64,000 nucleotides of DNA from an uncultured Helicobacteraceae bacterium (GTDB lineage Bacteria > Campylobacterota > Campylobacteria > Campylobacterales > SZUA-545): the NCBI GenBank assembly GCA_963542625.1, contig CAUTXO010000001.1:3068-67067 (forward strand), written 5' to 3'. The notes under the pieces are model-generated. The model was not told the DNA's origin. It made no database searches and saw nothing but the letters and a program-made list of their open reading frames with translations. The translations under genes and the position numbers were made by a program. Positions 26,525 to 64,000 of the stretch are shown here, piece by piece. Numbering within the stretch: the first letter of the stretch is position 1; each line of letters begins with the position of its first letter.

Positions 26525-26754
26525 CCAAAGATCCACGCGCTAAAATCCAAAATCCGTGCAACGCCAGCGTTAAGATCCAAGACTTAGATCTTAGATCCAA
26601 GCCATAAGATCTAGCGCACCAAAGATCCACGCGCTAAAATCCAAAATCCGTGCAACGCCAGCGTTAAGATCCGCCGCTTAAATCTTAGATCTACACCCCA
26701 AGATCTAGCACGCCAAAGATCCGCACTTAAAACCAAAACCTAGCGCTAAGATCC
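26525..26754. repeat. Tandem repeat with 94-bp period, 2 perfect plus 1 degenerate copy
   Basis: The 54-nt core ccaaagatccacgcgctaaaatccaaaatccgtgcaacgccagcgttaagatcc is identical at 26525-26578 and 26619-26672. A degenerate, shorter third copy lies at 26713-26754. Confidence 0.9.
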
Positions 26755-28140: not shown

Positions 28141-30461
28141 GCTAGAGCCTTTACGCGCGCCCTTAGGCAATCAAGCTCTATAAGCTCTGCGCGTGCAAGC
28201 TCGGCAAAAAGCGGCTCGCCGCAACCAATCGCCGCGGGCAAGCCAAGCTCGGCGCAACGCACCGCCATATGCGAATTTGCTCCGCCATAGCAAGTGATTA
28301 GCCCCGCGATGCCCTTGCCAAACAAAAAGTCATAGCCCGGGTCGGCGTTTTTTATGCAAACGATTTTGCCCGCTAGATCTTGCTCGTAAGGCTCGCCGCG
28401 GCTTGCCGTAACGCTTGCTAGCCCGATGAAATTTGCCTTGCCGCCGCCAATAAAAAACTCGTAAATATCGCTCTGCTGCGTGATTAAAGACGGCAGCTGC
28501 AAGGCTTTGGTGAATTCAAAGGCGTCTTTATTTTGCTTGATGTTTGTTAAAAATAAATTATCCAAATTGTCAAATTCTAGCGTGCTGTAAAGGTTTTTAA
28601 TAACGGCAAAGTCTAAAAACGCCAAGTCTTGCGCGCCGATGCCGCTTTTTGCGCCAAGATCCCCCAGCAAGGAGATTACTTGGCTTAGGTGGCGCGTGAA
28701 TAAAAATTTAGAATACTCGCGCGCTTCTATGGCGTCTTTTATGAATTTTACAAGCCCCGCCGCGCTTGTTTTTAAGCCGTTTTCTACGATCTGCGCGGAG
28801 ATTTTTTCTAGCTGAGCCTGACTAAACGCAAACTCTTTTGTGTCTTTAAACGCGCCCCCCCCCCCGCTGCTACGCGCGCCGAAATATCTATCGTAGTCCT
28901 CGTCGTATCGTGGCGATGTGATGTCGTAAGTGTTGGGGCGCAAATGCCCGTAAAGCTTTAGGAATTCGCCCTTTTCTAGGCGCGCAAAGTCTTTATTCAT
29001 CGTCTTAGAAACGGTGTTTATGCTAGCCAAAAACTCCGCGCGCTCTGGTTCGCTCATAATCCCCTCACTCACAAAAGAATTGAGAATTTGCGTGGCAATA
29101 AACGCCGCGCGCGCCAGCCCCGCAAAGGCTAGCGTGCCATAGCGCTTGCAATCTTCTGTGAGCCAATAAATCGTATCAATAAGCGGCAGCCCAGCATTCA
29201 TCACCGATGAAAATTTTTCATCTAGCAAGGCGATTTTCTCAAGGTCGCGCTGAAAATGCCCGCTCGGGGCTAAAATGCTATTGGTTAGATCCAAAAGCGC
29301 AAACTCAATGCGCTTGATTTCATTGGCGCTAAAGCCTTTGGATCTTAGCCTTTCTAAGCGCCCCGAAATGCCGAAAAAATAGCAAGAAAAGACAATCTCA
29401 AACTCGACCTTATCGTGCAAATGCGCGTTTTGCGCCAGCTCGTCCAGATAATATTCAACGAGTTTTTCGGCAATGTTTTCGTGCAAATTCTTTGGCAAAA
29501 AGGAGTTAAACGAAACGCGCACGTCAATGTATGGAATGCCAAAAAAGCTCACAAGCAGCGGAAACGAGCGCAAATTTCTGTAGCCATAATTGTCGCGCTG
29601 ATACGCCCAAATTTCATCCGTGATGAATTCTTTGTAAAGGCTAAGCGCTAGTTTTTTAGGCCTTAGCCCGATGATTTCAGCGGGGTTCCAATCAGGCATA
29701 ACGCCAAAAATGCTCCTTTTGCCAAGCAATTTTGGGTGGGGGCTGCTTAGTTTTTCGATTTTTTTAGAAAGCTTAGATAGCGCTAGATCTAGGTTCAGCG
29801 CGCTTTTGCCACTAGAATGCGTAAATGCAAGCGGCCTAGCTTGCAAGATAAACACCCGCTCATCGCAAACGGCAAACTCAATGTCAAGGGCGGGATTATC
29901 TAAAACGCTTTCAAGCTCGCGCGCGGCGTCTAAGATCCGCGCTAGATCTTTAGCGGCTGGCCTGTGATCTTTATAGCAAACAAAGGTCTTAAGATCTGCC
30001 TTGCCGCCTGCTGTAACGCTTGTTGTATCGCCGTTTTGTGAGTAATTGACGGTGTAATACGGCGCGCCAGAGGCGCTGAGTGTAAAAATCACGCCGCTAG
30101 CGCCAACGCCACTAAGCATTTCTTGCACAAAAACTTCATCTTGCGCGCAAGGGTTTTTATACGATGCAAAAACGCGCTCGATTGCCGCCTTAAGATCCGC
30201 CGCATTTGGCGCAACGTTTAAAACGCTCTCAAACGCCCCCGCGTTGCTAAAATGCTCTGCGTCTTCATTCACAGACGATGAGCGCACAATAAGCGGAGCG
30301 GAAAACTTTGCCAGCACCGCGCCCACAATGCCTGCCGCGTCTTTTTGAAAATCCGCGTAAGAAAACACGGCAAGCTCTAGCACGGCGGATTTTTTCAGGC
30401 GCCCTTGTAAAAATAAAAGAGTTTGTGCTTTGGAGCGGGTCATACTTTTTTTGCCATCCAC
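28137..30461 (-). CDS. PEP-utilising-enzyme family kinase (Cj1418-like; candidate L-glutamine kinase)
   Basis: 774 aa. An N-terminal PPDK_N/ATP-grasp-like region and a C-terminal phosphohistidine swivel domain (ITCYGGANSHMAVRCAELGLPAAIG). An alternative ATG at 30443 gives an ATGA overlap with the upstream stop. Confidence 0.8.
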   Translation of the reverse strand: MDGKKSMTRSKAQTLLFLQGRLKKSAVLELAVFSYADFQKDAAGIVGAVLAKFSAPLIVRSSSVNEDAEHFSNAGAFESVLNVAPNAADLKAAIERVFASYKNPCAQDEVFVQEMLSGVGASGVIFTLSASGAPYYTVNYSQNGDTTSVTAGGKADLKTFVCYKDHRPAAKDLARILDAARELESVLDNPALDIEFAVCDERVFILQARPLAFTHSSGKSALNLDLALSKLSKKIEKLSSPHPKLLGKRSIFGVMPDWNPAEIIGLRPKKLALSLYKEFITDEIWAYQRDNYGYRNLRSFPLLVSFFGIPYIDVRVSFNSFLPKNLHENIAEKLVEYYLDELAQNAHLHDKVEFEIVFSCYFFGISGRLERLRSKGFSANEIKRIEFALLDLTNSILAPSGHFQRDLEKIALLDEKFSSVMNAGLPLIDTIYWLTEDCKRYGTLAFAGLARAAFIATQILNSFVSEGIMSEPERAEFLASINTVSKTMNKDFARLEKGEFLKLYGHLRPNTYDITSPRYDEDYDRYFGARSSGGGGAFKDTKEFAFSQAQLEKISAQIVENGLKTSAAGLVKFIKDAIEAREYSKFLFTRHLSQVISLLGDLGAKSGIGAQDLAFLDFAVIKNLYSTLEFDNLDNLFLTNIKQNKDAFEFTKALQLPSLITQQSDIYEFFIGGGKANFIGLASVTASRGEPYEQDLAGKIVCIKNADPGYDFLFGKGIAGLITCYGGANSHMAVRCAELGLPAAIGCGEPLFAELARAELIELDCLRARVKALA
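28855..28865 (-). repeat. Poly-G(11) homopolymer inside the glutamine-kinase-like gene
   Basis: Run of 11 C on the + strand. It encodes GGGG in ...RSSGGGGAFKD and is in frame (ON) here. Confidence 0.95.
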
Positions 30462-31267
30462 ATTCTCGTTGTGTATTTGATGTCAAACTCAAGCGGCAAC
30501 GAATGCTCTAGTTTGTAGGCGATCTTGCCAAAAAGCGCTCTGCCTTCTTCGGTGCTAAGATCCCAGTATGGGTTTTTCACGCTCTGCCAGGCTTTGATGT
30601 AATTCTCCCTGCTTTGGCGGAAGTAAAAATCCTGCTCTATAAAGCAAATCTCATCAAAAAGCGCGCGCTGCGTTAGCAAAAATGGCTTTTGATCTTCGCG
30701 CCTAACGCCGCCTGAATAGTTTGGCAATAAGTCCTTGATGACTTCTTGCGCCGTTTCTTGGATTGGGTCGTCAAGATCCCTGTGATTCCACATACAAGCA
30801 AAGCAGCCGCGGGGCTTTAAGATCCTAGCCGTTTCTTTAAGCGCTAGCTCTCTATCTACCACGTTAAAGCTGCTGCCAAAGGTTACAAGATCAAAGCTAG
30901 CATCATCTAGCGTGGTTTCTGTTGCGCCCGCTTTATACCAGGTGGCGTCTTTGCCCTTTGTTCTTTCTATGCCGATTTCTCTCATTGCGTCGTTTGGCTC
31001 AACGGCGCTAACCTTCAAGCCCCGCTCTAGGAGCATAAGCGTTAGGTTTGCCGTGCCAGCGCCTAGATCTGCGGCAACGCCGCGCGGTTTTTCTTGTGCG
31101 CCGTTTTGCGCCCCGCCTTTGCCGCCAAACGCCCATTCGCAAAGCAAGTCTATTGCCTTTGGGCTGTAATTTGGGCGGTAGGTGTAAAACGCCGCGTGCT
31201 TAGTGTAGTTCCATTCTGTTTTGTAGAGCGTGGATTGCCCCCCCCCCCGCTGCTGTAAATTTTTCAT
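30440..31267 (-). CDS. Class I SAM-dependent methyltransferase (Cj1419/Cj1420-like)
   Basis: ADLGAGTANLTLML SAM motif I and FDLVTFGSSFNV motif. Poly-G tract at codons 7-10. Confidence 0.8.
   Translation of the reverse strand: MKNLQQRGGGQSTLYKTEWNYTKHAAFYTYRPNYSPKAIDLLCEWAFGGKGGAQNGAQEKPRGVAADLGAGTANLTLMLLERGLKVSAVEPNDAMREIGIERTKGKDATWYKAGATETTLDDASFDLVTFGSSFNVVDRELALKETARILKPRGCFACMWNHRDLDDPIQETAQEVIKDLLPNYSGGVRREDQKPFLLTQRALFDEICFIEQDFYFRQSRENYIKAWQSVKNPYWDLSTEEGRALFGKIAYKLEHSLPLEFDIKYTTRMWMAKKV
31238..31248 (-). repeat. Poly-G(11) homopolymer at codons 7-10 of the methyltransferase gene
   Basis: Run of 11 C on the + strand. It encodes MKNLQQRGGGQ and is in frame (ON). Confidence 0.95.
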
Positions 31268-31270
31268 TTT

Positions 31271-32035
31271 TCATATCCTTTGCGCCGTCCACGCTCTGAT
31301 TTTATACGGGACGGAAATTATGTCAAGTCCTGAGATCTTGCCTTCTATCATCGCCAAAACTTCCTCCCATTTGTCTCCCGCTTGCGCTTGAATGTCATTG
31401 ACGCTTTTCCACGCGCCGATGTAGCGCTCGCGGCTCATATGCTCGGTGTAGTCAATCTCTGCAAAAAAGCAATTCTTAAAATGCCCGCTGCTCTCAATGA
31501 CCGCCGTCCAGTCCTTGGTGTTTTGCGCCCCGCTTGAAACGCGCTTTAGATCTGGCAGCATTGCGCGGATCTGCTCTTCTATCTCATAAAACACCGTCCC
31601 TTCTTGCAAGTTGCGCGGATTCCACATCGCCGTGAATGAGCCGCCAGGCTTTAAGATCCGCCTAAACTCAGCAAGCGCCGCGGGCGCGTCCGTCCAGTGG
31701 AATGAGCTTGCCATTATCACCCAGTCGTAAGACCCTGCTTCTAGCCCCGTGCTCTCAGCGCTTGCCTTATGCCACGCTGCCTTAGTGTTTTTCGTGTATT
31801 CCACGCCCTCGCTTCGCATTGCGTCGTTTGGCTCAACGGCGGTAACAGCTAGCCCAATATTGCAAAGCATTTTTGTGAGCTTGCCCGTGCCCGCACCAAC
31901 TTCTGCGACCGCAAAATCTCCCCTTGCCGCGCCCCGCTCATTCACGCACAAAAAGAGCTTTTCTAATAGCACACTGCTATACGCGGGGCGGTTGTGGTAG
32001 TCCTTTGCCACCTGTGTAAAATCGCCTTGTTTCAC
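31271..32035 (-). CDS. Class I SAM-dependent methyltransferase (Cj1419/Cj1420-like)
   Basis: AEVGAGTGKLTKML motif I and YDWVIMASSFHW. Paralogous to the neighbouring methyltransferase. GTGA overlap with the upstream gene. Confidence 0.8.
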   Translation of the reverse strand: MKQGDFTQVAKDYHNRPAYSSVLLEKLFLCVNERGAARGDFAVAEVGAGTGKLTKMLCNIGLAVTAVEPNDAMRSEGVEYTKNTKAAWHKASAESTGLEAGSYDWVIMASSFHWTDAPAALAEFRRILKPGGSFTAMWNPRNLQEGTVFYEIEEQIRAMLPDLKRVSSGAQNTKDWTAVIESSGHFKNCFFAEIDYTEHMSRERYIGAWKSVNDIQAQAGDKWEEVLAMIEGKISGLDIISVPYKIRAWTAQRI

Positions 32036-32553
32036 TGTTCTCCTATCAATTTAAGAATTTGCGCCGCCTTTAGATCTAGGGCGTCTTGCCTTGTGTTGTC
32101 TATTTTTAAGTGGCAGTTTTTTGGCATATCAAAAGCTAAATCCATTCCAACGACGTTTTTTACGCCGCCATTTGCCCCGCTAGAAAAGCCGCTGTATAGC
32201 CCCTTTTGGTCGCGCCGTTTGAGCTCATCAAGGGAGCATTCTATAAAGATCTCGTAATACTCACGGACGTTTTTGCGGTTTTGCTCGAAGATCTCGCCAT
32301 AAAGAGACATCGTGGCGCAAACGACGTTAATATCCTGCCCGACCAAAAACGCGCACATAGCCGAGATCCGCCTAGCGTTTAAGAGCCTATCGGCGGGCGT
32401 GTGGCCTAGGTCGTTACCCAAAATGGCGCGGAAGGAGTCGCCGTCTAAAAATACTGTGTTTGGGTGGCGCTTTTTTAGGCGCGCAAAAACTTCTTTGCCG
32501 ATGGTGGTTTTGCCGCTACCGCTTAGCCCTGTGATCCAAATGAGTTTAGCCAT
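32032..32553 (-). CDS. APS-kinase-fold kinase (CysC/Cj1415-like; candidate cytidine diphosphoramidate 3'-kinase)
   Basis: MAKLIWITGLSGSGKTTIGKEV P-loop at the chosen ATG (32553), then FLDGD..R. The longer ORF to 32775 only adds repeat-encoded low-complexity sequence. Confidence 0.85.
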   Translation of the reverse strand: MAKLIWITGLSGSGKTTIGKEVFARLKKRHPNTVFLDGDSFRAILGNDLGHTPADRLLNARRISAMCAFLVGQDINVVCATMSLYGEIFEQNRKNVREYYEIFIECSLDELKRRDQKGLYSGFSSGANGGVKNVVGMDLAFDMPKNCHLKIDNTRQDALDLKAAQILKLIGEQ

Positions 32554-33922
32554 TTTTACCGCTTTGTGCTGGTGTGCGCGTTTGCGCTGGGGCGCTAGAT
32601 CTTGTGCTAGATCTTGCGGCGTTAGATCCAGCAAAGTTAGCACCAGCACCCATAAATCCTGCGGCGTCTTGCGCGGTTTGTTCGCCTTGCGCTTCTTGCG
32701 CGCCGTTAGATCCCGCGTTAGATCTCGCGCCACTGGATCTGCCATTTGCTGCGCGGATCTCATCACGCAAGGCAAGCACGCTTTCTACCACCGCGCATTT
32801 TTTGGCTTTGTAACGCAAAATAAACACGATGTTTTTCACAAAGCGCCTAAAAATAATCATCGGCTTTAACACCCCTAAGCGCTCTAAAAACCTAAGCACC
32901 GGCACGGTTAAAAGATGCGAATACTCGTAAGAATAATGAAACGAAAGCAAGTTTAATAAATTCACGCGTGAGTCGCCTAAAAGCTCTGCGCGGCAAATGG
33001 CGCTTTGGCTCATATCCGCCTTGGTGCAAAGCTTGTAGCCAGCGGCAAGATAAAGCGGCGCAAACATAGTCTCAAAGGCAAGCTGTTCTTCTTGGCTTAG
33101 GGCATCGTAAGTGATTTCTTTTTGCACTTCAAGCATCAGGTCTCCTTTAGCAGATTCATACTCCCAAGCCTTACCCATAAAGGTAGCCTTTAGCAAAGAT
33201 GGCGTAAATTCCAAGCCGACACGCTCGCAAAGATCTTTCATACAAACGTCTGGATCCATATGCAAATCTTCTAACCTAAGCGTGATGTAATTAGCAAGAT
33301 CCTTATGCAAAAAGTAATTTTTCATCCCGAATTTATACGCTTCTAATAAGCCCAAAACATAATTTACAGCCGTATTTTTTAACTTTTGCTTTAGCCTGAT
33401 GTGAGAAACGATGGCATTACTCATATCCCTAAACATATGCACGATAAAAACGTTTTTAAAGATAGCCTCTCGTTCTTTTAAGTAGAGCTCGCTCGGGTTT
33501 GAATGAATGTGCTCTACTATGTGCGTTACGTTTGTAAAATTAAAGCAAGCGGCAATAGCTGCGTAAAAACTTTCTATGTAATTTTTAACGGATCTTTGCC
33601 TAGCCGCTGCTGGAATAAAAACGTCCTTAAACTTCTGCGTATCAAAACTTAAGGTGTTTTTGCTGTAAAAAAAGTTATTTGCCGTGCTGAATTTATTCAC
33701 GTAAGGGTCTCTAAAAAAGCTCTCGCAAAGCATATCAAGCGACAAATCCATACGCGATGAAAAAAACTCATAACTATCAAAAAAACCGCTTGGCACAAAG
33801 GCAACGTTTTTATGCCCGTCTAGCATACTTTGAAGCAAGCTAGATCCGCTCCTGCTATGCACGTAAATATAGATGATTGTAAGATGTTCTAAACTTTTCA
33901 TTTTATCTGCAATAAATTCCAA
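32546..33922 (-). CDS. Sulfotransferase-fold protein (candidate phosphoramidate transferase) with low-complexity C-terminal tail
   Basis: IYVHSRSGSSLLQSMLDGH resembles the 5'-phosphosulfate-binding loop of bacterial sulfotransferases. An alternative ATG at 33901 gives an ATGA overlap. The last 70 aa or so are A/S/G/Q-rich. It overlaps the kinase start by 8 nt. Confidence 0.6.
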   Translation of the reverse strand: MEFIADKMKSLEHLTIIYIYVHSRSGSSLLQSMLDGHKNVAFVPSGFFDSYEFFSSRMDLSLDMLCESFFRDPYVNKFSTANNFFYSKNTLSFDTQKFKDVFIPAAARQRSVKNYIESFYAAIAACFNFTNVTHIVEHIHSNPSELYLKEREAIFKNVFIVHMFRDMSNAIVSHIRLKQKLKNTAVNYVLGLLEAYKFGMKNYFLHKDLANYITLRLEDLHMDPDVCMKDLCERVGLEFTPSLLKATFMGKAWEYESAKGDLMLEVQKEITYDALSQEEQLAFETMFAPLYLAAGYKLCTKADMSQSAICRAELLGDSRVNLLNLLSFHYSYEYSHLLTVPVLRFLERLGVLKPMIIFRRFVKNIVFILRYKAKKCAVVESVLALRDEIRAANGRSSGARSNAGSNGAQEAQGEQTAQDAAGFMGAGANFAGSNAARSSTRSSAPAQTRTPAQSGKNG

Positions 33923-35532: not shown

Positions 35533-36668
35533 TTGCCATCGCCATTTAAACGCAAAAATTCATACAAACCCGCTAGCTTAACGCTCCAGCTAAGCCTTTC
35601 TTTTGCCATTTTTTGCATATCTTTTTGCGCTTGCTCTAGATCTAGGGCATCGTAAAATTCCACAATACGCTCTAAATCAATCTGCGTTTCGTTTGCTTCA
35701 AGCTTTAAGGCAAAGCTTTCCTGCGCGTTTAGATCCACGTCATCATAAGCATAAACAAAGGGTATCCCCCGCGCAATGTATTCGCGCGTTTTTAGGGCGC
35801 AAGCTTGCTGTATTTTGTTGCGGAAAACAGCAAGGCTTGAGATGGCAAGGTCGCACGATGAAAACTCAAGATCTAGCTTCTCACGCCCAAGCAAACCGCA
35901 AACGGTTATATCAACAAGCGGGTTTTTAATAGAGCTAATATGCTGCTCTTGGCTAGCTGTAACTTTCCCTACAATTTTGAGCGAGATCTTTTTAGCGCCG
36001 CGATACGCCTTGGCGCCGGCTAAGATCCTATCCAAACCGTGCCAATGCGTAAAATTAGACGCTACAAAGATTATCCTAAGATCTATGACGCGCTTTTGCC
36101 TTTTTACAAAACTAAAAGCGTTTTCATCTATGCCGTTTGAAAAAACAAAAAACGGCTTAGCTCTTAAGATCTTGCGCTCTTGCAAGGCGGCAATCTCCCC
36201 CGTTACCGCAACAAACCCACGCACAAAATTCAAATAAAACAGCGACAAAATGCTTTCAACAAAAGCCTTTATTTTGTTTTTTACGCCACCGCTTGCGGAT
36301 ATTTCCATAATCTCGTTCGTATGATGCTCGGAAAATATTTTTTTGCCGTATTTAAGCGCAAAGAAAAAGGATGAAAAATCAGAATTTGCGTAGCGTAAAA
36401 CAATCAAATCATATTTATTCAAATCAACCGTTTTTGCAAGTAGGTAGTATCTAAAAAGCTTCCTAGCTATCCGGTCTATGGCGGGGTGAAAAAACGGCGC
36501 GGGGCTAACTAAATGCAAATTGCCATATGTGCCGTTTGTGCCAGAATTTAAAAGGATAAAGTCCATATCCAAGCCAGCCTTTGCGGCTAGAAGCGCCTGC
36601 TCTTTTAACTTTTTTTCAACACCGCAAATGCTACCTGATAAAAAAATATTAATGTGCGCTACTTTCAA
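35529..36668 (-). CDS. Glycosyltransferase, GT-B (group 1/GT4-like)
   Basis: FSNGIDENAF..., ...IFVASNF..HGLDRIL and LKTREYIARGIPFV resemble the GT4 donor-binding C-terminal half. Confidence 0.6.
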   Translation of the reverse strand: MKVAHINIFLSGSICGVEKKLKEQALLAAKAGLDMDFILLNSGTNGTYGNLHLVSPAPFFHPAIDRIARKLFRYYLLAKTVDLNKYDLIVLRYANSDFSSFFFALKYGKKIFSEHHTNEIMEISASGGVKNKIKAFVESILSLFYLNFVRGFVAVTGEIAALQERKILRAKPFFVFSNGIDENAFSFVKRQKRVIDLRIIFVASNFTHWHGLDRILAGAKAYRGAKKISLKIVGKVTASQEQHISSIKNPLVDITVCGLLGREKLDLEFSSCDLAISSLAVFRNKIQQACALKTREYIARGIPFVYAYDDVDLNAQESFALKLEANETQIDLERIVEFYDALDLEQAQKDMQKMAKERLSWSVKLAGLYEFLRLNGDGK

Positions 36669-37713
36669 TAATTTCCTTTACTATTTTTTCACACGCTCTG
36701 CCGTCGCCGTATAGGGGCTTAACCGGCTTTGAAACGCTTTTTATTTTTAGATAAGCATTTATCATACTATTGCCCCCCCCCCCGACCAGAACATTTGCGC
36801 CTTCATCTACTAGCTCGCTCCATTCTGTTTCATCTCTTGCAACAACGCAACGCTTACCAAAAAAATACGCTTCCTTTTGCAAACCGCCACTATCGGTTAT
36901 GGCAACTGAGCAATGCAAAAGCAGCCAGATCATCTCCAAATAGCCAACTGGATCTGTGACGCAAATATCGCCGGTAGAAATTCCAAAAGCATCAAGCGCG
37001 CCTTTTGTGCGTGGGTGGAGCGGCAAAACCACTTGCTCGTGCTTTGCAATTTCACGCAAGCCGCTAAAAATACTTTCAAGACGCGCTTTATCGTCCGTGT
37101 TTTCTGCTCTGTGAATGGTAGCAAGCACAAAGTTTGAGCTAAGATCTAGCCCCGGGCGCCTTGCTTTTTCTTTGTAATACAGGGCGCCGTCAAACATCAC
37201 ATCGCCACTATTTACAACGCGCACGCCAAAATTTCCAAAGCCCTCACGCTCTAAATTTTGCACGGCAAGATCCGTAGGGCAAAACAAAAACGCGCTTAGT
37301 CTGTCGGTTAAGATCCTGTTTATTTCTTCTGGCATTTTCATATTAAAACTACGCAAGCCCGCTTCAATATGCGCGATTTTTATATGCAACTTAGCAGCAG
37401 TAAGCGCCGCGGCTAGCGTTGAGTTTGTGTCGCCATAAACTAGCACAAGATCTGGTGATAGCTCTAGCATAACGCTCTCTAGCGCTTCCATCATTTTTGC
37501 CGTTTGCGCCGCGTGGGAATTTGCCCTGATGTTTAGCTTAAAGTGCGGTTTTGGAATGTCTAGCTCGTCAAAAAATATATCGCTCATATTAAGATCATAG
37601 TGCTGACCGGTATGGATTATAAACTCTTGTATCTCGGTGTTTTTTAGCGCCCGGCTAAAGCTTGCCGCCTTTATAAATTGCGGCCTGGCGCCTAAAACGG
37701 TTGCTATCTTCAT
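36649..37713 (-). CDS. wecB: UDP-N-acetylglucosamine 2-epimerase (non-hydrolysing type)
   Basis: MKIATVLGARPQFIKAA..., HTGQHYD, VLVYGDTNSTLA, HIEAGLRSFN, TDSGGLQKEA signature blocks. Confidence 0.9.
   Translation of the reverse strand: MKIATVLGARPQFIKAASFSRALKNTEIQEFIIHTGQHYDLNMSDIFFDELDIPKPHFKLNIRANSHAAQTAKMMEALESVMLELSPDLVLVYGDTNSTLAAALTAAKLHIKIAHIEAGLRSFNMKMPEEINRILTDRLSAFLFCPTDLAVQNLEREGFGNFGVRVVNSGDVMFDGALYYKEKARRPGLDLSSNFVLATIHRAENTDDKARLESIFSGLREIAKHEQVVLPLHPRTKGALDAFGISTGDICVTDPVGYLEMIWLLLHCSVAITDSGGLQKEAYFFGKRCVVARDETEWSELVDEGANVLVGGGGNSMINAYLKIKSVSKPVKPLYGDGRACEKIVKEIIESSAH
36773..36783 (-). repeat. Poly-G(11) homopolymer near the 3' end of wecB
   Basis: Run of 11 C on the + strand. 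It encodes VGGGGNS and lies about 105 nt upstream of the overlapping glycosyltransferase start. Confidence 0.95.
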
Positions 37714-39524
37714 TCTATGCCGCCAAAAACTTCAAGCCATTTTGCGTAGGCAATCACTCTCCAAAACTTACCGCTGTAAGCTTGCTTGCCGCTTATAAAC
37801 GCATCAAAATCGCTCAAGATCTTTTCATTTATATACTTGCTTTTTTGCGCCGCCAAAGCTAGCTCGTCCCGCAAAAAAACGTGATGCTTTTTAAACCAAA
37901 GCGCTTCAGGCGTTGCAAAACCTATCTTATCTTTTCTAGATGAAATGATTGCCGGCAAGATCTTAGCCAAAGCTTCACGCAAGATCCGTTTAGTTTGCCC
38001 ACGGTGAATTTTACGCGTTTTATCAGCACAAAGCAAAAACTCCACCAAGCGATAATCCAAAAACGGCAACCTAGATTCAACGGACGAAAACATAGAATTC
38101 CTATCTTCATAGTGCAAAAGCGCCGGTAGGTTGGTGTGGAAGATCTGCGCTAGGGACATTTTGGCTAGGTTACTGCTGCGCTCTCCATAATCTATATACG
38201 GGAATTTAACGTCTATGTTTTTAAATAAATCCGTATTTAGCCACGCGCTCTTTGCGGGCTTAACTAGCTTTTTTATAAACGCCGGCAGTGTGTAAAACAG
38301 CGCCCTGGCAATCAAATAAAACTTTGAAATACCGTGCATCTTGCTAAGGGCTGCTACTTCTTTTGTAAATAAGCCAAACTGAAACTTCACCAAGCATTCC
38401 GACAAAAACGAGTAAAAATATTCATTGTAGCCGCCTAAGATCTCATCGGCACCCTGACCGTCTAGCATAACCTTTATGCCAAGATCTTTCGCCCTTTCAA
38501 ACACGCAAAATTGCGCAAAAATGGACGTTGAAGCATAGGGAACATCTTGCGCGTATATGGTTTTTTTCAAAAAATCCGCATCAAGGAGCCTATCTAGATC
38601 TGGGTAGATCTTATGGCTTGCGATGTTTTTTTGGCTTGCCACACCATCTATAAACAAGCTCTCGTCTATGTTTTTATCCGCGTAGCAAGCGCTAACACAG
38701 TCTAGGCGCTTATCGCTCAAAACATCATCTGCCATAGAAACAATGGACGAGCTATCAAGCCCACCAGATAGACAAGATCCAACACTCACATCCGCCCTAA
38801 GCCGCAAAGAAACAGCGGATCTAAAAAGCTCCAAAAAGTCTGCGGATCTAGTCTGCGGCTCATACCACTTGCTGATACTATAAGAATTAGCTTGCAAGTC
38901 GTAAAGTAGCTTTTCGCCCGCGCACAGCTGCTTTATGGATCTAAAGAATGTATTTTGATTGTAGTCTATCAGCGCGTTTTGCAAAAAGTTATACACAGCT
39001 TCTTCATCAACGCACGCGTCAAAGTTTTCAAGGGCTACAAACTGCTTAATCTCCGAGCCAAACACAAAAAAATCACCTATTTTTGAGTAGTAAAAAGGCT
39101 TAACGCCAAACCTATCCCTAGCGCAAAAAACGGTTTTTTGTAGTTTGTCGTAAATGGCAAAAGCCCACATACCGTTTAAGCGCCATAAGCAATCTTGCCC
39201 AAAGAAATCATAGGCTGCTAAAATAACTTCCGTATCGCCAGCGGTTGTGAAGGCATAGCCCTTATCTAAAAGCTCTTGTTTTAATTCTTGGAAGTTGTAG
39301 ATCTCGCCGTTATATACAATCGTGTAGCGCTCCAAATAAGACATAGGCTGATTAGAACAAGCCCCAAGATCTACGATAGAAAGCCTGCGATGCCCAAGCG
39401 CCACGCCATCATCTACAAAAACACCCGAAGAATCTGGCCCCCTGTGCTTGACGGCGTCAAGCATAAGCGGCAAGTAGCCCTTTGGTATAGGCTTATTAGC
39501 TAGTATGCCTGCTATGCCACACAT
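37710..39524 (-). CDS. Asparagine synthase (glutamine-hydrolysing) family amidotransferase
   Basis: MCGIAG Ntn nucleophile, HRRLSIVD and PP-loop CLSGGLDSSSIVSMA. Confidence 0.85.
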   Translation of the reverse strand: MCGIAGILANKPIPKGYLPLMLDAVKHRGPDSSGVFVDDGVALGHRRLSIVDLGACSNQPMSYLERYTIVYNGEIYNFQELKQELLDKGYAFTTAGDTEVILAAYDFFGQDCLWRLNGMWAFAIYDKLQKTVFCARDRFGVKPFYYSKIGDFFVFGSEIKQFVALENFDACVDEEAVYNFLQNALIDYNQNTFFRSIKQLCAGEKLLYDLQANSYSISKWYEPQTRSADFLELFRSAVSLRLRADVSVGSCLSGGLDSSSIVSMADDVLSDKRLDCVSACYADKNIDESLFIDGVASQKNIASHKIYPDLDRLLDADFLKKTIYAQDVPYASTSIFAQFCVFERAKDLGIKVMLDGQGADEILGGYNEYFYSFLSECLVKFQFGLFTKEVAALSKMHGISKFYLIARALFYTLPAFIKKLVKPAKSAWLNTDLFKNIDVKFPYIDYGERSSNLAKMSLAQIFHTNLPALLHYEDRNSMFSSVESRLPFLDYRLVEFLLCADKTRKIHRGQTKRILREALAKILPAIISSRKDKIGFATPEALWFKKHHVFLRDELALAAQKSKYINEKILSDFDAFISGKQAYSGKFWRVIAYAKWLEVFGGIE

Positions 39525-40461
39525 TTATAAACTTCCTTATAAGGGCATTTGGCAAATTCAAAACGCTTGCTACGTATTTGTTTATAGGGCGCATCTTTAG
39601 CCCTAATAATAAATGATGCCCCCCCCCCGCAGCTATTTTTTGAAAAAACCTAAGCAAGGCTATATTTAGCGTGTTATAAACGTTGGTGCTAAAATCTTGC
39701 CTACCGTCAAAAAACCCATAGCGCGTCCAGATGCTGTAAAAATTCCAAATGCTAAGATTTGAGTTTAGAAAATCTAAGCCTAATTTAAAATCCGGCGCAT
39801 ACGTATTGTCTTCTAGCGATAGCTCGTAAATGCCAACAAGAGAGAATAAAAACCCGTCCAAAACAAGGCTTAGCGGATAAGCCGCGTATTCTTCAAAATA
39901 GACCTTGCCATTATGCGTGGCTCTTACCCCGCCGTTTGCAATATCTATCCTATACATATTAGCACCCGCGCGCGCAAGATCTAAGTATTTGCCGTCCCTT
40001 GTAAAATGAAACCACCTAATCAAAAGGCTTATAATCAAGCCTTGCGCCATTGCAGAAACCCAGCCGCTTTTAAGGAGCGTTTTGCCGTTGTGCCAATTAA
40101 AATTATAAGGCCACTTTTTGGCGCCAATACCACCCGCGCTATGATCTAAGCAAGACGCTTCAATCCAAGCAACAGCCGAAGAAACGCGGTTTATAAAGAT
40201 CTCATCGCTAGTTTCTAAAAACTTTTGAAAGTTCAAAAGCCCATAATACGCAAGATAAGACGGATTCACAAAAAAACCATCATCATAGCGCGTTAGCAAA
40301 ACGCCCGCGCTATCTATTTTGTATCTCTGCCCTAGCGCAAGAGTGCCTATTTGCCAAAGATCTTGGCTATAAAAAACATACTTGCCTGCGTGTGAATAAT
40401 CATCGTTTAAGCGCACATCAACATCTTGGCAAAAATCTTTGAAGTAGGTCATTATTTCCAA
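39496..40461 (-). CDS. D-glucuronyl C5-epimerase C-terminal-domain-like protein
   Basis: SGWVSAMAQGLIISLLIR...TRDGKYLDLA...GGV...YFEEY...LVLDGFLFSLVGIYELS matches the conserved blocks of the glucuronyl C5-epimerase C-terminal family. An alternative ATG lies at 40452. Confidence 0.65.
   Translation of the reverse strand: MEIMTYFKDFCQDVDVRLNDDYSHAGKYVFYSQDLWQIGTLALGQRYKIDSAGVLLTRYDDGFFVNPSYLAYYGLLNFQKFLETSDEIFINRVSSAVAWIEASCLDHSAGGIGAKKWPYNFNWHNGKTLLKSGWVSAMAQGLIISLLIRWFHFTRDGKYLDLARAGANMYRIDIANGGVRATHNGKVYFEEYAAYPLSLVLDGFLFSLVGIYELSLEDNTYAPDFKLGLDFLNSNLSIWNFYSIWTRYGFFDGRQDFSTNVYNTLNIALLRFFQKIAAGGGHHLLLGLKMRPINKYVASVLNLPNALIRKFINVWHSRHTS
39619..39628 (-). repeat. Poly-G(10) homopolymer in the C5-epimerase-like gene
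   Basis: Run of 10 C on the + strand. It encodes AAGGGHH and lies about 95 nt upstream of the overlapping AsnB-family start. Confidence 0.95.
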
Positions 40462-41294
40462 GCTTTAACGTAAGAAAACCAACCAAGCTTGCCCTCAAAA
40501 CTTTCCAAAAAGCCCTTTGGCAATAAATACCCAATAGGCCAAAACATCCATTTCTGAACAAGCTTATTAAACACATACACGTATCGAAATTCAGACATCA
40601 TAGATCTAAGCTCATCGTTTGAATACATATCGCCCTTTGGGTTGCCAAAGCCATCAACGGCATTTAAAAGCTCCTTTCTAGACATACCAAGATAGCGCGG
40701 GTGTATAAACGGTAGCATATTGAAGTTCCACATACTAAGCAAGCTGTTTTTATGATAAAACATCATTATTAGGCGCCCCCCCCCCCGCAGGACTCTATAA
40801 GCTTCGTTTATCGCCTTTTGCGTGTTTGGTGTGTGATGCAAAACTCCCATTGAGCACACGCAATCAAACGTGTTATCTTCAAACGGCAACTCTTCAGCAT
40901 TTGCAACAAAAATATCCCCGCTAAGCCCCAAAGATCTAAAGCGGCTTTTTGTTATATCCACAGCCGTTTGCGTAATGTCTATTCCCGTTACAAAGGCCCC
41001 GTTTTTTGCGTAATGGCTAAGCACATAACCGTTACCACAACCTATATCCAAAACCTTTTTGCCACTAAAGCTCGGATACTCGTGCAAGTTATAAGAAAAT
41101 TCCAAACTCTCGTTTTTTTCTCTAAAGGCATCGCCTTTTTTGAAATACATTTCGCTACCAAATTCTTCATTAATGGCGCTTGAACCTACCGGGTTTTTAT
41201 CCCAAAACTCTTTAACATCGTCAATCGTAATACTCAGCTTATATCCTTTATAAAACACCGCAACATCTAGTGCAAGCCGGAAACATTCCAACAC
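40452..41294 (-). CDS. Class I SAM-dependent methyltransferase
   Basis: KVLDIGCGNGYVLSHYA motif I, FDCVCSMGVLHHTP and GGRLIMMF. Confidence 0.8.
   Translation of the reverse strand: MLECFRLALDVAVFYKGYKLSITIDDVKEFWDKNPVGSSAINEEFGSEMYFKKGDAFREKNESLEFSYNLHEYPSFSGKKVLDIGCGNGYVLSHYAKNGAFVTGIDITQTAVDITKSRFRSLGLSGDIFVANAEELPFEDNTFDCVCSMGVLHHTPNTQKAINEAYRVLRGGGRLIMMFYHKNSLLSMWNFNMLPFIHPRYLGMSRKELLNAVDGFGNPKGDMYSNDELRSMMSEFRYVYVFNKLVQKWMFWPIGYLLPKGFLESFEGKLGWFSYVKAWK
40776..40786 (-). repeat. Poly-G(11) homopolymer in the methyltransferase gene
   Basis: Run of 11 C on the + strand. It encodes LRGGGRL. Confidence 0.95.
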
Positions 41295-42336
41295 GCCTTA
41301 GCGAGCTTCTAAAATCTTTCATTTTTTTACCATTCCAAATACTTCCAAAACTTTCTTTCATAATATTTCCCATCACGATATGAAAACAGCGCGTCATAAT
41401 AATCACATCACCGTTAGCCATAAACTGCGCCTGCTCCCAAGGGACGCGACAGTGATCCCTTGAAAATATTTTTTTAGGATCCGTAAAATACATTTTTGCA
41501 TCTTCAGCACTATTAAAATAAGGAGTTTGTATAAGATGAACCCCCCCCCCTTGCTTAATAATTTTTGCCGCTTTCTGAAGATTTTCATACATCAGATCAT
41601 AATCAATTGTTTCAGGGAAAATCGAGCTAATGCACGTTGGTGTGGCGCGCGCTATATCGCCAAAGTATTTGTTGTGTGTATTTGCCATATCCTGCGTAAC
41701 AAAATTCAAATGAGAAAACGCAACTTGCGTTGGGTGGATCTTAATAACTTCACGCGCAAAATCTTCCAAATGCAAGTAATTCCAATCCGACACAACGTGA
41801 TTTATCAGCCTTTCTTTTATGCCAAGATCCTTAGCCCTTAAAAAACCTTCAACGGCATTGGCGTAAGATTTGCCACCCCCGCCTCTTATTTTGTCGTGAA
41901 TCTCTGCTGTGCCGTCTAAAGAGATAGAAAGCGTATCAAGCCCGGCTGAAGCTAGGTCGTCTATTTTTTTAGGAAGCAAAAGCCCGTTTGTACCAACTTG
42001 CGTTTTGCAACCCTTTTTCTTGGCGTATTCAATTGCCGCTGGCAAATGCTTCCAAAGCAAGGGCTCGGTAGAAATAATGGCAATCACCGGGCGCACGGGG
42101 GCTAGCTCATCCACAATGCGCTTAAAAACTTCAAGCGGCATATCCATATTCGCCGAAAGCATGTTAAGCGTAAATTGTGTATCCGTTTGGTTTTGCCCCA
42201 CATCGCACATCTTGCAAAACAAGTTACAACGCGAATTGACTATTATATAAACCATCTTAGGCCACAAAGCGCTACTGCCTAAAAGGTGGCGGTTTATCTT
42301 TAGCCTAACGTATGGCACTAAATTTTTTAATTGCAT
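41248..42336 (-). CDS. Radical SAM enzyme with C-terminal Cys-rich (SPASM/twitch-like) region
   Basis: IVNSRCNLFCKMCDV CX3CX2C motif and C-terminal Cys residues (DHCRVPW...TRCF...PACTRCCG). The preferred ATG at 42336 (MQLKNLV...) overlaps the upstream stop (TGATG). The longest ORF extends to 42381. Confidence 0.8.
   Translation of the reverse strand: MQLKNLVPYVRLKINRHLLGSSALWPKMVYIIVNSRCNLFCKMCDVGQNQTDTQFTLNMLSANMDMPLEVFKRIVDELAPVRPVIAIISTEPLLWKHLPAAIEYAKKKGCKTQVGTNGLLLPKKIDDLASAGLDTLSISLDGTAEIHDKIRGGGGKSYANAVEGFLRAKDLGIKERLINHVVSDWNYLHLEDFAREVIKIHPTQVAFSHLNFVTQDMANTHNKYFGDIARATPTCISSIFPETIDYDLMYENLQKAAKIIKQGGGVHLIQTPYFNSAEDAKMYFTDPKKIFSRDHCRVPWEQAQFMANGDVIIMTRCFHIVMGNIMKESFGSIWNGKKMKDFRSSLRRVGMFPACTRCCGVL
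41541..41550 (-). repeat. Poly-G(10) homopolymer in the radical SAM gene
   Basis: Run of 10 C on the + strand. It encodes KQGGGVH. Confidence 0.95.
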
Positions 42337-43508
42337 CAGGCAAGCTCTTTTTTCAAAATAACAAAATCGCCGTCTTTCCACTGCGTGCCATTAAAAGATC
42401 CGTTAACAATAAGCTCAAAACTATCCCTTAAATACCCCGCCATACTTTCCGTGCTGTGCTTTTTGTAGACAAGATCTTGCGCCGCTGCTGCAACGCCTTC
42501 GTAATCTTTTATATTGCGTAATAGATCTTTAATCTGCCTTATTGGATCCCCAAGATCTAGCTCCACATAATGCACGTTTTCTTTAAAGCCCATATCAGAA
42601 AATCCATAAGGCGCCACACAAAGCAAAAGCGATTTGTTAGCCGGGATCTCAAAAAACTTCCTAATAGCGGTTTTGTATTGGCTACCATCGGTAAAGGAGA
42701 TCTTAGACGTCGCCAAATGCTCTTCAAAAATAAAGTTATAAAGCTTCATCGTTACGATGTTTGAATACGGCTTAAGCCCCAACCTATTAAAAAGCGAATA
42801 CGCAAAGTTATGGATCCTGCGCGGCATAGTGATCTCTTTTGCTTGCTTAACCTGCTCTCTTAACGCCCGGCGCTGATAATAAAGCACGCCCTCTACGGAA
42901 AAATCGTATTTTCTGTGCTCTAGGCAAGAGTATCTAAATTCACTAGGTGCAATGGTATGGTAAAAAGAAATTGTCCTGTGCTTATACCTATTTACAAACT
43001 CGTAATAATCGTCATTTAAAAGCCCTACGTGCTTTTCTTTGTCTATGCCGGGGAGATCTTTCATCGCAACTAAATATTGCGTCCCCATACCTATATAATA
43101 AGCGCCCTGTTCTTCGTAGGCCTTCATAATGTACGTCGGAAAATTGTGAAAGTCAAACATTTCCTTAAAGACGAGGTTTGTATTTTTCAAAGACGCTATA
43201 TCCCTAGCAATAGCCGGCAAATAATAAATGTGTTCTATTGGGTAGTGAATAAACCTATATTTTCTGTATTCGTTTAGGTATTTTGCGTTGATTGGTTGGG
43301 TGGAAAAATACGGAAAGCAAATATCATCAACGACAATATCAAAGCCACCGTGCCTTTCTATGTAAGCGTTCAAGCCCTCTTTTAGCGTTTTTTCATCGGA
43401 AAACCCTGGTCCAAAAAAATAAGCGTTTAATTTTCTAAAGATGGTTAAATAGTTTCTATCTGTAGGGTTTAAATACTCATTGTAAGCACCGATGTAAAGT
43501 ATCCTCAC
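42336..43508 (-). CDS. Hypothetical protein, possibly a CgeB-like glycosyltransferase-family domain
   Basis: 390 aa. The C-terminal half (IRKFFEIPANKSLLLC...VHYVELD...IKDLL...) loosely resembles Glyco_trans_1_2/CgeB-type domains. GTGA overlap with the upstream stop. Confidence 0.45.
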   Translation of the reverse strand: MRILYIGAYNEYLNPTDRNYLTIFRKLNAYFFGPGFSDEKTLKEGLNAYIERHGGFDIVVDDICFPYFSTQPINAKYLNEYRKYRFIHYPIEHIYYLPAIARDIASLKNTNLVFKEMFDFHNFPTYIMKAYEEQGAYYIGMGTQYLVAMKDLPGIDKEKHVGLLNDDYYEFVNRYKHRTISFYHTIAPSEFRYSCLEHRKYDFSVEGVLYYQRRALREQVKQAKEITMPRRIHNFAYSLFNRLGLKPYSNIVTMKLYNFIFEEHLATSKISFTDGSQYKTAIRKFFEIPANKSLLLCVAPYGFSDMGFKENVHYVELDLGDPIRQIKDLLRNIKDYEGVAAAAQDLVYKKHSTESMAGYLRDSFELIVNGSFNGTQWKDGDFVILKKELA

Positions 43509-44176
43509 AAAAATCCTTCGTTAAAGATCTTATCAATCACGCTAAGTCCGCCTAAAAACTCGCTTGTATTCACCTGCGCGTAAGCTTGTGGCGCAAAGTT
43601 TTGCGCGAGCAATTCTATCTTTGATTCTCTGAATTTTGCCGCGTCTTGGTAGCCACCCGCACCCCCGCCATACATATACGCCCCGCACCCCGCCGCGCGC
43701 ACTAGGTCAATTAGCAATTCATTAGAAGAAGAGCAAAAGCCAAAGCTTGAAGCAAACAAGATCTTGCCGGCTGTCTTAATCCCAAAGCGCTCACAAATGG
43801 CAAGAATGGCCTGCACGTTATACTCCGCCACGTTTTCTTTGGCGCATTCAACTAGCCCAAAGATAAAATCCGCGTGCTCCTTAAAATGCGGCGCGCGCGC
43901 GTAATTTGCCTTGAGCGTTTTAACAGCCTTTGCGCGCCAAGCTTCACCGGCAAAAAGCGTCTCGTTTATTTTCCAAAGCCCACGCGGGCGCACAATTGGC
44001 GCGGTTAGCCAAGCCTTGCGCCCGGCAATGTTTATCGCCACGCGGTTTGTGTATGTGCCGCTGCCCTTTTTCTCAAATTGCACGCTGTCTAAAAACACAA
44101 AGCGGTCGGCGCGGCGAATCTTGTCAAAAAACCCAAGCCAAGGGAAAAAGTTTGGCTGATGAATGGCGCAAATCAT
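43505..44176 (-). CDS. WbqC-family protein
   Basis: MICAIHQPNFFPWLGFFDKI...FVFLDSVQF is the characteristic WbqC N-terminal signature. ATGA overlap. Confidence 0.75.
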   Translation of the reverse strand: MICAIHQPNFFPWLGFFDKIRRADRFVFLDSVQFEKKGSGTYTNRVAINIAGRKAWLTAPIVRPRGLWKINETLFAGEAWRAKAVKTLKANYARAPHFKEHADFIFGLVECAKENVAEYNVQAILAICERFGIKTAGKILFASSFGFCSSSNELLIDLVRAAGCGAYMYGGGAGGYQDAAKFRESKIELLAQNFAPQAYAQVNTSEFLGGLSVIDKIFNEGFL

Positions 44177-44694
44177 CTAAAAAGGCTCATAATCGCAAGA
44201 TCTCTAAGCTCGCCGTCTATAAAAGCGTGGCGCCTTAGCAAGCCCTCGCGCACAAAGCCAAGCCGCTCGTATAATCTCGCCGCGCGCGTATTAAAGTCAA
44301 AAACATACAGGTAAATTTTTTGCAAGTCTAGCGCGCCAAAGCCGTAAGAGATAAGCTTGCCTAAGGCGCGGCTGCCGTAGCCTTTGGACGTGTAGGCAAG
44401 ATCTATGCGCGCGCGTAGCTCGGCGGTTTTGCTTACAAGATCTATGCCGTATAGCCCACAAGATCCAATAAGCTCATCGCCCAAAAAAATGCCAAAAAAC
44501 ACCGTGCTTGCATCGCGCCTTAGGGCGTCAAACCACTCCGCGTGGCTTTTAAAATCCACCGGCTTATAGCGGGCGCTAAAGCGCACAAGGTCAGCGTCGT
44601 TAATAAGCTCAAAAAGCCGCGCAAGATCTTGTTCGCCCCGCACCGCGCCAAGCCTTAGTGCGCTTTGGTTGGCGCCGCTGCTTAGCGCTTCCAC
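44173..44694 (-). CDS. GNAT-family N-acetyltransferase
   Basis: About 170 aa. Acetyl-CoA-binding-type segment (YTSKGYGSRALGKLISYGF) and a C-terminal ...RLYERLGFVREG. Confidence 0.75.
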   Translation of the reverse strand: MEALSSGANQSALRLGAVRGEQDLARLFELINDADLVRFSARYKPVDFKSHAEWFDALRRDASTVFFGIFLGDELIGSCGLYGIDLVSKTAELRARIDLAYTSKGYGSRALGKLISYGFGALDLQKIYLYVFDFNTRAARLYERLGFVREGLLRRHAFIDGELRDLAIMSLFR

Positions 44695-45413
44695 GTGTCT
44701 TCCAAGCGGATCTTATAATCCGCGCGCGTGGCGGCGTATCTGTGATTTGGCGCAAACGCCGCGTCTAGCCCCGCTAAATACGAGCTAAGCATTTTGTTAA
44801 GCGGTTGTTCGTAGGTGTTGCCCCCCCCCCCGGAGAGATGAAACGGGTGGAAAAGCACCTGTATAAGCCTTGTGCGCGATGTTTGCAAAAAGCTTTCTGG
44901 GTCTTTGTTTCTGAAAGAAAAGCAAGAGTCGCTCATATAAATTTCATCGCTGAAAATCCGGCTGTCATACGCGCTAAGCAGCCCCGTGTTTTCCAAATAA
45001 ATATTATGAATACTGGGGCTGTGCATACTAAAAGACGCCACGCGCTCTTGCGTTAGATCTTCTAGCATTTGGCACTCTTTTTGTAAAAGCGCGGTTAGCT
45101 CAAGCGGATCTGCGGCGTTATAAACAAGCGGGTCAAAGTGCAAGCCAACCTCTGCGCGGCTTGCCATACGGCGCAAAAGCCCGCGTGAATGCGTGCTAAA
45201 GGCGTTGTAAAGTGGCGAGGTCAAAAGCACGTAATAAGTGGCGCGAATCCCAAGATCTACCTCACGCTCAAAGAGTTCGTAGGCAATATCTATGGACGCG
45301 TCTATGTCGTGGCGCAATAAGATCCCGTGCTTTAGGCTTTGAAAGTCTTTGATTTGGTGCGTTTCATACTTAGCGATTGTCTCTAAGTAGATCTCTTGTT
45401 TAAACATATTCAT
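44682..45413 (-). CDS. Polysaccharide-deacetylase-like protein (tentative)
   Basis: GILLRHDIDASIDIA...GIRATYYVL resembles the N-terminal metal-binding region of divergent CE4-like deacetylases found in O-antigen loci. Weak. Confidence 0.5.
   Translation of the reverse strand: MNMFKQEIYLETIAKYETHQIKDFQSLKHGILLRHDIDASIDIAYELFEREVDLGIRATYYVLLTSPLYNAFSTHSRGLLRRMASRAEVGLHFDPLVYNAADPLELTALLQKECQMLEDLTQERVASFSMHSPSIHNIYLENTGLLSAYDSRIFSDEIYMSDSCFSFRNKDPESFLQTSRTRLIQVLFHPFHLSGGGGNTYEQPLNKMLSSYLAGLDAAFAPNHRYAATRADYKIRLEDTWKR
44821..44831 (-). repeat. Poly-G(11) homopolymer in the deacetylase-like gene
   Basis: Run of 11 C on the + strand. It encodes LSGGGGNT. Confidence 0.95.

Positions 45414-61367: not shown

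Positions 61368-64000
<2,633 letters not shown>

Follow-up and report, generated by a model that had tools for sequence, protein, structure and literature searches.

That surface-glycan genes are switched by poly-G contingency tracts is standard textbook knowledge for Campylobacter, Helicobacter and Neisseria. The same concept, that is, combinatorial glycan variation by independent switches made of simple sequence repeats (SSRs), is found in the lipooligosaccharide (LOS) loci of Neisseria and Haemophilus, with poly-G tracts in lgt and tetranucleotide repeats in lic, although these differ from the case considered here in their unrelated hosts, other glycan chemistry and the presence of mismatch repair. 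Here, we describe a cluster of glycan synthesis and modification genes that carries seven long G tracts on a 64-kb stretch of DNA (hereafter the window, i.e., the whole stretch analysed) from an uncultured Helicobacteraceae bacterium, and compare it with the closest described systems.

For Campylobacter jejuni 11168, poly-G tracts have been described in six of the 28 genes of the capsule locus, namely cj1420, cj1421, cj1422, cj1426, cj1429 and cj1437, the first three of which lie beside the genes for O-methyl phosphoramidate (MeOPN) (PMC3417653). The rate of switching at such G8-G11 tracts (runs of 8 to 11 G) is 4e-4 to 4e-3 per division, with deletions favoured at G11 (PMC3401435). The genes cj1415-cj1418 are required for MeOPN (PMC3907429), whose phase variation controls sensitivity to phage F336 and serum resistance (PMC3417653, PMC3907429). 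In several other species of Campylobacter, the orthologues of cj1416-cj1418 have no GC tracts, and in C. fetus none of the MeOPN genes has one (PMC3907429). The core phasome of C. fetus (CFT03427_1545-1581) is also dense, with many G8-G11 genes in one region, including radical S-adenosylmethionine (SAM) genes of the MoaA/NifB/PqqE/SkfB family and several SAM-dependent methyltransferases (PMC6321876). In Helicobacter canadensis, 29 tract-associated genes have been reported, among them a polysaccharide deacetylase and an epimerase, and switching of the C-terminus has been proposed for tracts late in an open reading frame (ORF) (PMC2823697).

The locus in the window resembles the capsule locus of C. 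jejuni. In-frame G8-G11 tracts are present in seven of its 21 genes, compared with the six of 28 there, the order of the MeOPN cassette (methyltransferases, L-glutamine kinase, candidate hydrolase, cytidylyltransferase) is similar, and a tract-bearing methyltransferase occupies the cj1420 position, with ON and OFF states set by frameshift as in C. jejuni (PMC3417653, PMC3907429). The differences are that the host is not a Campylobacter, that the window has no kps export genes, that its GC content is 47% as against 30% in C. jejuni, and that the genes with tracts include that of the committed MeOPN step (L-glutamine kinase) and wecB but no recognisable MeOPN transferase; where C. jejuni has its transferases, the window has a tract-free gene of the sulfotransferase fold. 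The likeness to the C. fetus region is one of tract density and gene families, in a different species with different gene content. Poly-G tracts inside the ORFs of glycosyltransferase, polysaccharide deacetylase and epimerase genes are shared with H. canadensis and H. pylori (PMC2823697), and NCBI places the lineage of this metagenome-assembled genome (MAG) in the Helicobacteraceae, a kinship at the family or order level only. In H. canadensis, however, the tracts are scattered over the genome instead of lying seven to a 16-kb cluster, and there is no MeOPN cassette.

Seven in-frame G tracts and their lengths in five samples

The whole window was scanned with a regular expression for G/C homopolymers of at least 7 nt, which returned eight runs, that is, seven C10-C11 runs on the plus strand and one G9. 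As all seven C runs lie inside minus-strand ORFs, they are G tracts on the coding strand. They fall in seven different genes, in frame in every case, and are translated as GGG or GGGG (Table 1). Therefore, the positions, lengths and frames given by an earlier reading made from the sequence alone (the sequence-only reading) are all correct, as is its statement that the flanking genes have no comparable tract, the sole other G/C run of at least 7 nt being the intergenic G9. Under a model of independent and identically distributed bases, 0.06 G/C runs of at least 10 nt are expected in the window, and seven G10-G11 runs were found within 16 kb. This pattern is far beyond chance.

The codon usage is also unusual. 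Glycine is preferentially encoded by GGC (62%), with GGG at 23%, and all seven stretches of at least three glycines in 34 kb of flanking genes are written in mixed codons (GGC/GGT), whereas 7 of the 11 inside the locus are pure GGG. In the proteins, the tracts occupy variable positions. In the L-glutamine kinase homologue, the tract lies in a non-conserved linker that has no counterpart in homologues and is locally hypervariable between samples W and B (defined below); in WecB, the LVG-A-(D/N)-K loop of homologues becomes LVGGGG; in the radical SAM enzyme, a variable loop changes from KK-EGI to KQGGGV; and in the deacetylase-like protein, the tract lies over a consensus Gly in a loop three residues past the invariant His192. 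Such placement is as expected of repeats selected for mutability at glycine-tolerant sites.

In-silico changes of one or two nucleotides in either direction bring a stop codon 3-48 codons on in all seven genes, mostly within 3-18 codons. For the C5-epimerase-like gene (39496-39628), a +1 or -2 change leaves 37-38 open codons and gives a product of 315-316 aa with an alternative C-terminus. This open frame may be due to chance or to C-terminal switching, the latter being possible because the +1 frame is open for 38 codons, with the precedent of H. canadensis (PMC2823697).

Through exact-protein look-ups, the locus was found in four further datasets, which were compared as consensus metagenome assemblies. 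With W denoting the window, these are strain B (Logan SRR33858005; loci L162, L163 and L164), strain C (ENA ERZ28635313; loci L165, L166, L167 and L081), strain D (Logan SRR21874894; loci L168 and L169) and strain E (Logan SRR33858030; locus L170). The strains are 94-99% identical in nucleotide sequence to W and to one another, and strain B is 100% identical to NCBI JBQMYV010000006.1 over an 18,062-bp overlap. Beyond this species, scans of genome and metagenome contigs with WecB returned homologues of at most about 64% identity. Among 161 loci (160 from these scans plus L081), ten have a G/C run of at least 8 nt and none has a comparable cluster. Exact look-up of the window WecB and of the protein P0121 returned no contig on record.

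The tracts occur at identical sites in the loci from the four other samples. As the sequence-only reading had proposed, tract lengths were compared among these relatives, and they differ: the deacetylase-like tract is found as G10, G11 and G12, and in strain C the wecB tract is G10 and that of the methyltransferase with the N-terminal tract is G12 (Table 1). All these slippage-type length variants, at the three genes, are frameshifted. In strain C, the deacetylase-like product is called at 205 aa and WecB as two products of 316 and 38 aa, exactly as predicted in silico for G12 and G10, respectively. The tracts are real, non-random, conserved in site and polymorphic in length between samples, with the length variants out of frame. 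At the other four tracts, the one or two strains that could be compared show no variation of the slippage type. In addition, contig L165 of strain C stops a single base short of the radical SAM tract (corresponding to 41552 in the window), as would be seen if heterogeneous tract lengths had broken the assembly here.

The length differences with their frameshifts support the view, already put forward in the sequence-only reading, that the seven G runs are hypermutable SSR contingency tracts of one surface-glycan cluster, acting by slippage as ON/OFF switches, and we give this a probability of roughly 0.78. In this mechanism, slipped-strand mispairing at replication would add or remove one G, the change in G count would shift the frame, and the enzyme would be truncated 3-48 codons later. 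The glycan step would thereby be lost, and a further slip would restore it. Glycan tailoring steps could thus toggle between ON and OFF in a stochastic, heritable and reversible way, so that a population would carry mixed glycan variants, the likely benefit being escape from recognition by phage or host. A high switching rate, reversibility, a phenotypic effect and a selective agent would be expected from the precedent of Campylobacter and Helicobacter.

The sequence-only reading had counted up to 2^7 glycan states. As an arithmetic upper bound this number stands, but it does not hold as a number of distinct phenotypes, because pathway dependencies would collapse states; for example, with the L-glutamine kinase OFF, the state of the MeOPN methyltransferase is irrelevant. 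It had also placed two of the tracts about 100 nt upstream of overlapping downstream starts, and the measured distances are 105 nt from the wecB tract to the start of the glycosyltransferase family 4 (GT4) gene and 95 nt from the epimerase-like tract to that of asnB. The OFF alleles of wecB and the epimerase-like gene terminate approximately 85-100 nt ahead of these starts, and an effect on GT4 and AsnB through translational coupling or polarity is plausible.

Table 1. Genes of the glycan cluster in order of transcription, with tract positions in the window and tract lengths in the samples W to E
Order	Gene or product	Position	Strand	Tract: position, length, codon	Tract by sample	Basis or remark
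	Whole cluster	26768-48995	-			21 co-directional genes, overlapping or with gaps of at most 30 nt
1	AsnB-type amidotransferase		-			
2	FemAB-like protein		-			
3	Hexapeptide acetyltransferase		-			
4	Deacetylase-like 243-aa protein	44682-45413	-	44821-44831, G11, codon 195/243	W G11 ON, B G11 ON, C G12 OFF, D G10 OFF, E G10 OFF	CE4/NodB-like polysaccharide-deacetylase fold
5	GNAT		-			
6	WbqC		-			
7	390-aa protein		-			NCBI name: glycosyltransferase
8	Radical SAM/SPASM enzyme	41248-42381	-	41541-41550, G10, codon 278/377	W G10, B interrupted (GGTGGGGGAGGGG)	362 aa from ATG at 42336
9	Second tract-bearing methyltransferase	40452-41294	-	40776-40786, G11, codon 170/280	W G11, B G11	Class I, Methyltransf_11
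10	Glucuronyl-C5-epimerase-like protein	39496-40461	-	39619-39628, G10, codon 278/321	W G10, B G10	C5-epimerase C-terminal domain, Pfam C5-epim_C, E = 5.5e-30; 318 aa from start 40452
11	AsnB		-			
12	WecB, non-hydrolysing UDP-GlcNAc 2-epimerase	36649-37713	-	36773-36783, G11, codon 311/354	W G11, B G11, C G10 OFF (L166)	Pfam Epimerase_2, E = 1.7e-100; NCBI name
13	GT4		-			
14	AsnB-like protein		-			
15	Sulfotransferase-fold protein	32546-33922	-	none		Position of the C. jejuni MeOPN transferases
16	APS (adenosine 5'-phosphosulfate)-kinase-like cj1415 homologue	32032-32553	-			PRK05541, 186 bits vs cut-off 127
17	Second MeOPN-type methyltransferase	31271-32035	-			cj1419 position; domain search
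18	N-terminal-tract methyltransferase	30440-31267	-	31238-31248, G11, codons 7-10 of 275	W G11, B G11, C G12 OFF (L167)	cj1420 position; 275 aa; class I SAM, Pfam Methyltransf_11/25
19	L-glutamine kinase homologue (cj1418-like)	28137-30461	-	28855-28865, G11, codon 533/774	W G11, B G10 then T, in frame	PPDK_N + PEP-utilizers; probable ATG 30443, 768 aa
20	gamma-Glutamyl-CDP-amidate-hydrolase-like amidotransferase (cj1417-like)	27505-28170	-			Best NCBIfam NF045546
21	cj1416-like nucleotidyltransferase	26768-27508	-			NTP_transf_3

Contrary evidence and other explanations

Several observations weigh against contingency switching of a surface glycan at this locus. Strains W and B have the same in-frame length at five of their six common tracts. 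At the L-glutamine kinase, strain B differs from W by a G-to-T substitution in the last position of the tract and by 15 nt inserted upstream, and not by slippage. In its radical SAM gene, mixed GGN codons (GGTGGGGGAGGGG) stand in place of the pure tract, still encoding four Gly, an allele that we read as 'locked-ON'; mixed GGN codons in a close relative had been named in the sequence-only reading as a refuting pattern, and they are seen at this one of the seven tracts. Three of the tracts come late, at 80-87% of the ORF, and since they fall in the last 13-20% of the genes, a frameshift may alter function instead of abolishing it. Finally, kps, wzx/wzy and pse/leg genes are absent from the 64-kb window, and the glycan could be that of a capsule, of lipopolysaccharide (LPS) or of flagellin. 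Neither the flanking kpsMTEDFCS genes nor the Campylobacter host of a kps-type capsule locus are found here, and Campylobacter, which the sequence-only reading had taken as its frame of reference, does not apply as such.

Two candidates for further switches were rejected. The G11/G10 difference at the L-glutamine kinase is not slippage, in view of the substitution and insertion given above, by which the frame is kept. Similarly, the split of the second tract-bearing methyltransferase in strain C was set aside on account of a run of Ns in locus L167, which we read as a scaffold gap of a short-read paired-end assembly.

The alternative that survives best, although we consider it unlikely, is that errors of assembly or sequencing at long G runs have produced the length differences and that the tracts are fixed codons of glycine loops. 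The comparative data are all consensus assemblies and not reads, G runs of at least 10 nt are error-prone on some platforms, the two long assemblies have every tract in frame, and the agreement of W and B at five tracts would fit as well. However, a single site has three lengths among five independent datasets from different pipelines (ENA, Logan and NCBI), with changes in both directions (+1 and -1). The comparable A/T runs of at least 6 nt, 26 of 26 in the strain C locus contigs and 114 of 114 in strain B, all agree with W in length. Because these runs are stable and L167 is read as a short-read assembly, the differences in the G tracts are not generic homopolymer error. Poly-G errors of two-colour sequencing fall at read ends and would not give in-frame 10-11-mers that recur from one dataset to the next. 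Moreover, pure GGG defies the strong preference for GGC and is confined to the locus.

It is somewhat less probable again that the tracts act on the level of RNA or protein, with transcriptional slippage or ribosomal frameshifting producing two isoforms per gene and no heritable switch in the DNA. The late position of three tracts would suit this, as would the +1 product of the C5-epimerase-like gene, which is near full length with an alternative 38-aa tail, and there is a proposal of C-terminal phase variation in H. canadensis (PMC2823697). On the other hand, the length differences were observed directly in DNA, the shifted frames mostly stop within 3-18 codons, a tract at codons 7-10 of a methyltransferase can act solely as an ON/OFF switch, and 38 open codons in a row could well be due to chance.

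Least likely of all, the genes could be decaying relics under relaxed selection, the frameshifts being irreversible pseudogenising changes at G runs that are mere mutational hot spots, as the non-repeat deletions in the sulfotransferase-like gene of strains B (1 nt) and C (10 nt), the different gene at this position in strain D and the three genes OFF in strain C could suggest, but W has all 21 cluster ORFs intact and B all of its tract-bearing genes, the tract sites are identical across strains and kept against codon bias, and the interruption or loss of tracts that would be expected in most strains is seen at one of six tracts, in one strain.

With contingency switching as the preferred reading, what is modestly new is the host lineage, the fact that wecB and the gene of the committed MeOPN step carry tracts, and the direct ON/OFF evidence, which comes purely from comparing public metagenome assemblies. 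The concept of phase variation is unchanged by the finding. High-density poly-G switching would extend to an uncultured Campylobacterota lineage without close cultured relative, it would cover the committed step of MeOPN synthesis, and ON/OFF states could be read straight from public metagenome assemblies. In MAG annotation, a glycan gene 'frameshifted' at a G run should count as a phase variant and not as a pseudogene or an error.

It should be noted, as a separate observation, that the DNA beside two of the tracts differs between strains W and B. Next to the L-glutamine kinase tract (W 28800-28930, L162 11530-11670), the 15-nt insertion is accompanied by differences in 6 of the next 9 nt, and a 3-nt insertion, CAT, directly follows the wecB tract (W 36760-36775, L162 ~3688). 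Such divergence adjacent to the tracts is unusual given the 97% identity of the two strains.

Gene content and the MeOPN cassette

The cluster was delimited by ORF calls, domain assignments (Pfam and NCBIfam) and synteny in strain B. It is bordered by thiE and clpB on one side and, on the other, by an 830-bp AGATCT-rich intergenic region followed by the SLT domain gene and flgH. That it forms a single operon is a reasonable inference from the co-directional packing of its genes. A scan of the locus for consensus promoters and terminators performed no better than on shuffled sequences. A near-consensus sigma-70 match, TTGACA-16-TAAAAT with 11 of 12 positions, is located at 31326-31299 on the minus strand, still within the 3' end of one methyltransferase gene and just upstream of the next, which has its tract at codons 7-10; as a consensus match, it may be an internal promoter.

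The gene labels of the sequence-only reading all hold. For the 243-aa protein, a Pfam search gave no match, and the label deacetylase-like is supported by sequence profile and structure. An alignment of 37 representatives gave weak matches to PDB sequences, all of them NodB chitin or polysaccharide deacetylases; the AlphaFold model built from the alignment of representatives has a predicted local distance difference test (pLDDT) score of 94, compared with 47 from the single sequence; and the top 20 Foldseek matches of the model in PDB are all CE4/NodB deacetylases. The C5-epimerase-like protein matches D-glucuronyl C5-epimerase in PDB (E = 1.7e-14).

From the APS-kinase-like gene onward, the genes match the C. 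jejuni MeOPN genes cj1420-cj1415 in content and largely in order (PMC3907429). The L-glutamine kinase homologue matches NCBIfam PRK05849 over its full length with 948 bits (cut-off 501), and its homologues are annotated as 'glutamine kinase' by the Joint Genome Institute (JGI). The cj1417-like protein gives E = 3e-40 and 138 bits against NF045546, which is under the 250-bit cut-off of this family. For the cj1416-like gene, the PDB sequence search returned generic nucleotidyltransferases only, and for the methyltransferase with the N-terminal tract it returned no match. The cj1416- and cj1415-like genes are contiguous with the two methyltransferases, and their functions are predicted from family matches.

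The sulfotransferase-fold gene, which stands in place of the C. jejuni MeOPN transferases, varies between strains. It is intact in W, has a 1-nt deletion off repeats in strain B (L164 ~15740) and is broken in strain C by a 10-nt deletion that is not at a repeat (L167 ~385), while strain D has a largely different gene of 482 aa at this position (L169 206-1654). The product is a candidate phosphoramidate transferase under diversifying loss, and its candidate donor is an analogue of 3'-phosphoadenosine 5'-phosphosulfate (PAPS). A literature search for a link between Cj1421 and sulfotransferases found none.

The sequence-only reading had suggested that tracts in genes of donor synthesis, i.e., the kinase-like gene and wecB, would switch whole branches. 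Since cj1415-cj1418 are needed for MeOPN (PMC3907429), switches in the L-glutamine kinase and wecB would indeed be expected to gate branches. A more ambitious version, which we regard as tentative and rather doubtful, is a hierarchical network, as opposed to independent toggles, in which the 'master' tracts of the L-glutamine kinase (first committed MeOPN step) and of wecB (UDP-ManNAc) gate branches, the other tracts, i.e., those of the methyltransferases, the radical SAM enzyme, the epimerase and the deacetylase, tune decorations, and early termination damps GT4 and AsnB by loss of translational coupling. If this were true, phase-variable MeOPN would occur far outside Campylobacter, and the phosphoramidate transferase would be an enzyme of the sulfotransferase fold.

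Host lineage and flanking DNA

The ValS protein (valS 53166-55745) is 99% identical to that of a Helicobacteraceae MAG and at most 68% identical to anything else. It is approximately 60% identical to those of Nitratiruptor, Hydrogenimonas, Sulfurovum and Caminibacter, and none of the top 120 ValS matches is from Campylobacter, Helicobacter or Wolinella. In the sister assembly GCA_052173315.1, the NCBI protein names read 'MAG: Helicobacteraceae bacterium'. Judging by these matches, the host is a deep-branching uncultured Campylobacterota lineage without close named or cultured relative, probably a new genus- or family-level lineage with flagella and chemotaxis genes. An origin from Campylobacter, as the MeOPN genes could suggest, was rejected in view of the ValS matches and the Helicobacteraceae label at NCBI. 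The flanks encode ThiE, ClpB, CheA/W, methyl-accepting chemotaxis proteins (MCPs), a TonB receptor and flagellar rod proteins, and further the SLT domain protein, FlgH, ValS, HtpG and LigA.

The single G9 run (61318-61326) lies approximately 42 nt past the stop codon of ligA (61368-63362, minus strand). Upstream of it, coding on the plus strand seems to run past the ORF at 59282-61042 to a TAA at ~61313. Placed after ligA and after this plus-strand coding, the G9 therefore lies 3' of convergent genes and not in a promoter. An AAA-ATPase gene may be split or frameshifted near it.

In addition, the palindrome AGATCT is about 14-fold over-represented in the whole window, with 233 occurrences against 17 expected. 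Its extended context is (A/T)AGATCT(T/A), and it is approximately three times denser in intergenic than in coding DNA. Clusters of this motif are found at 5172-5569, 26385-26701, 49076-49382 and 49620-49811, with arrays on both sides of the glycan locus, and a further cluster is located at 32594-32729. Six other hexamer palindromes (ACATGT, ACTAGT, AGTACT, CCATGG, CGATCG and CGTACG) do not occur in the window, where 14-17 of each would be expected. We suspect that an uptake, methylation or repetitive extragenic palindromic (REP)-like signal together with restriction avoidance may account for the excess and the missing palindromes. A 94-bp tandem repeat, AGATC-rich and with 2.1 copies at 88% matches, is located at 26525-26722, in the intergenic DNA that separates thiE from the final gene of the cluster.

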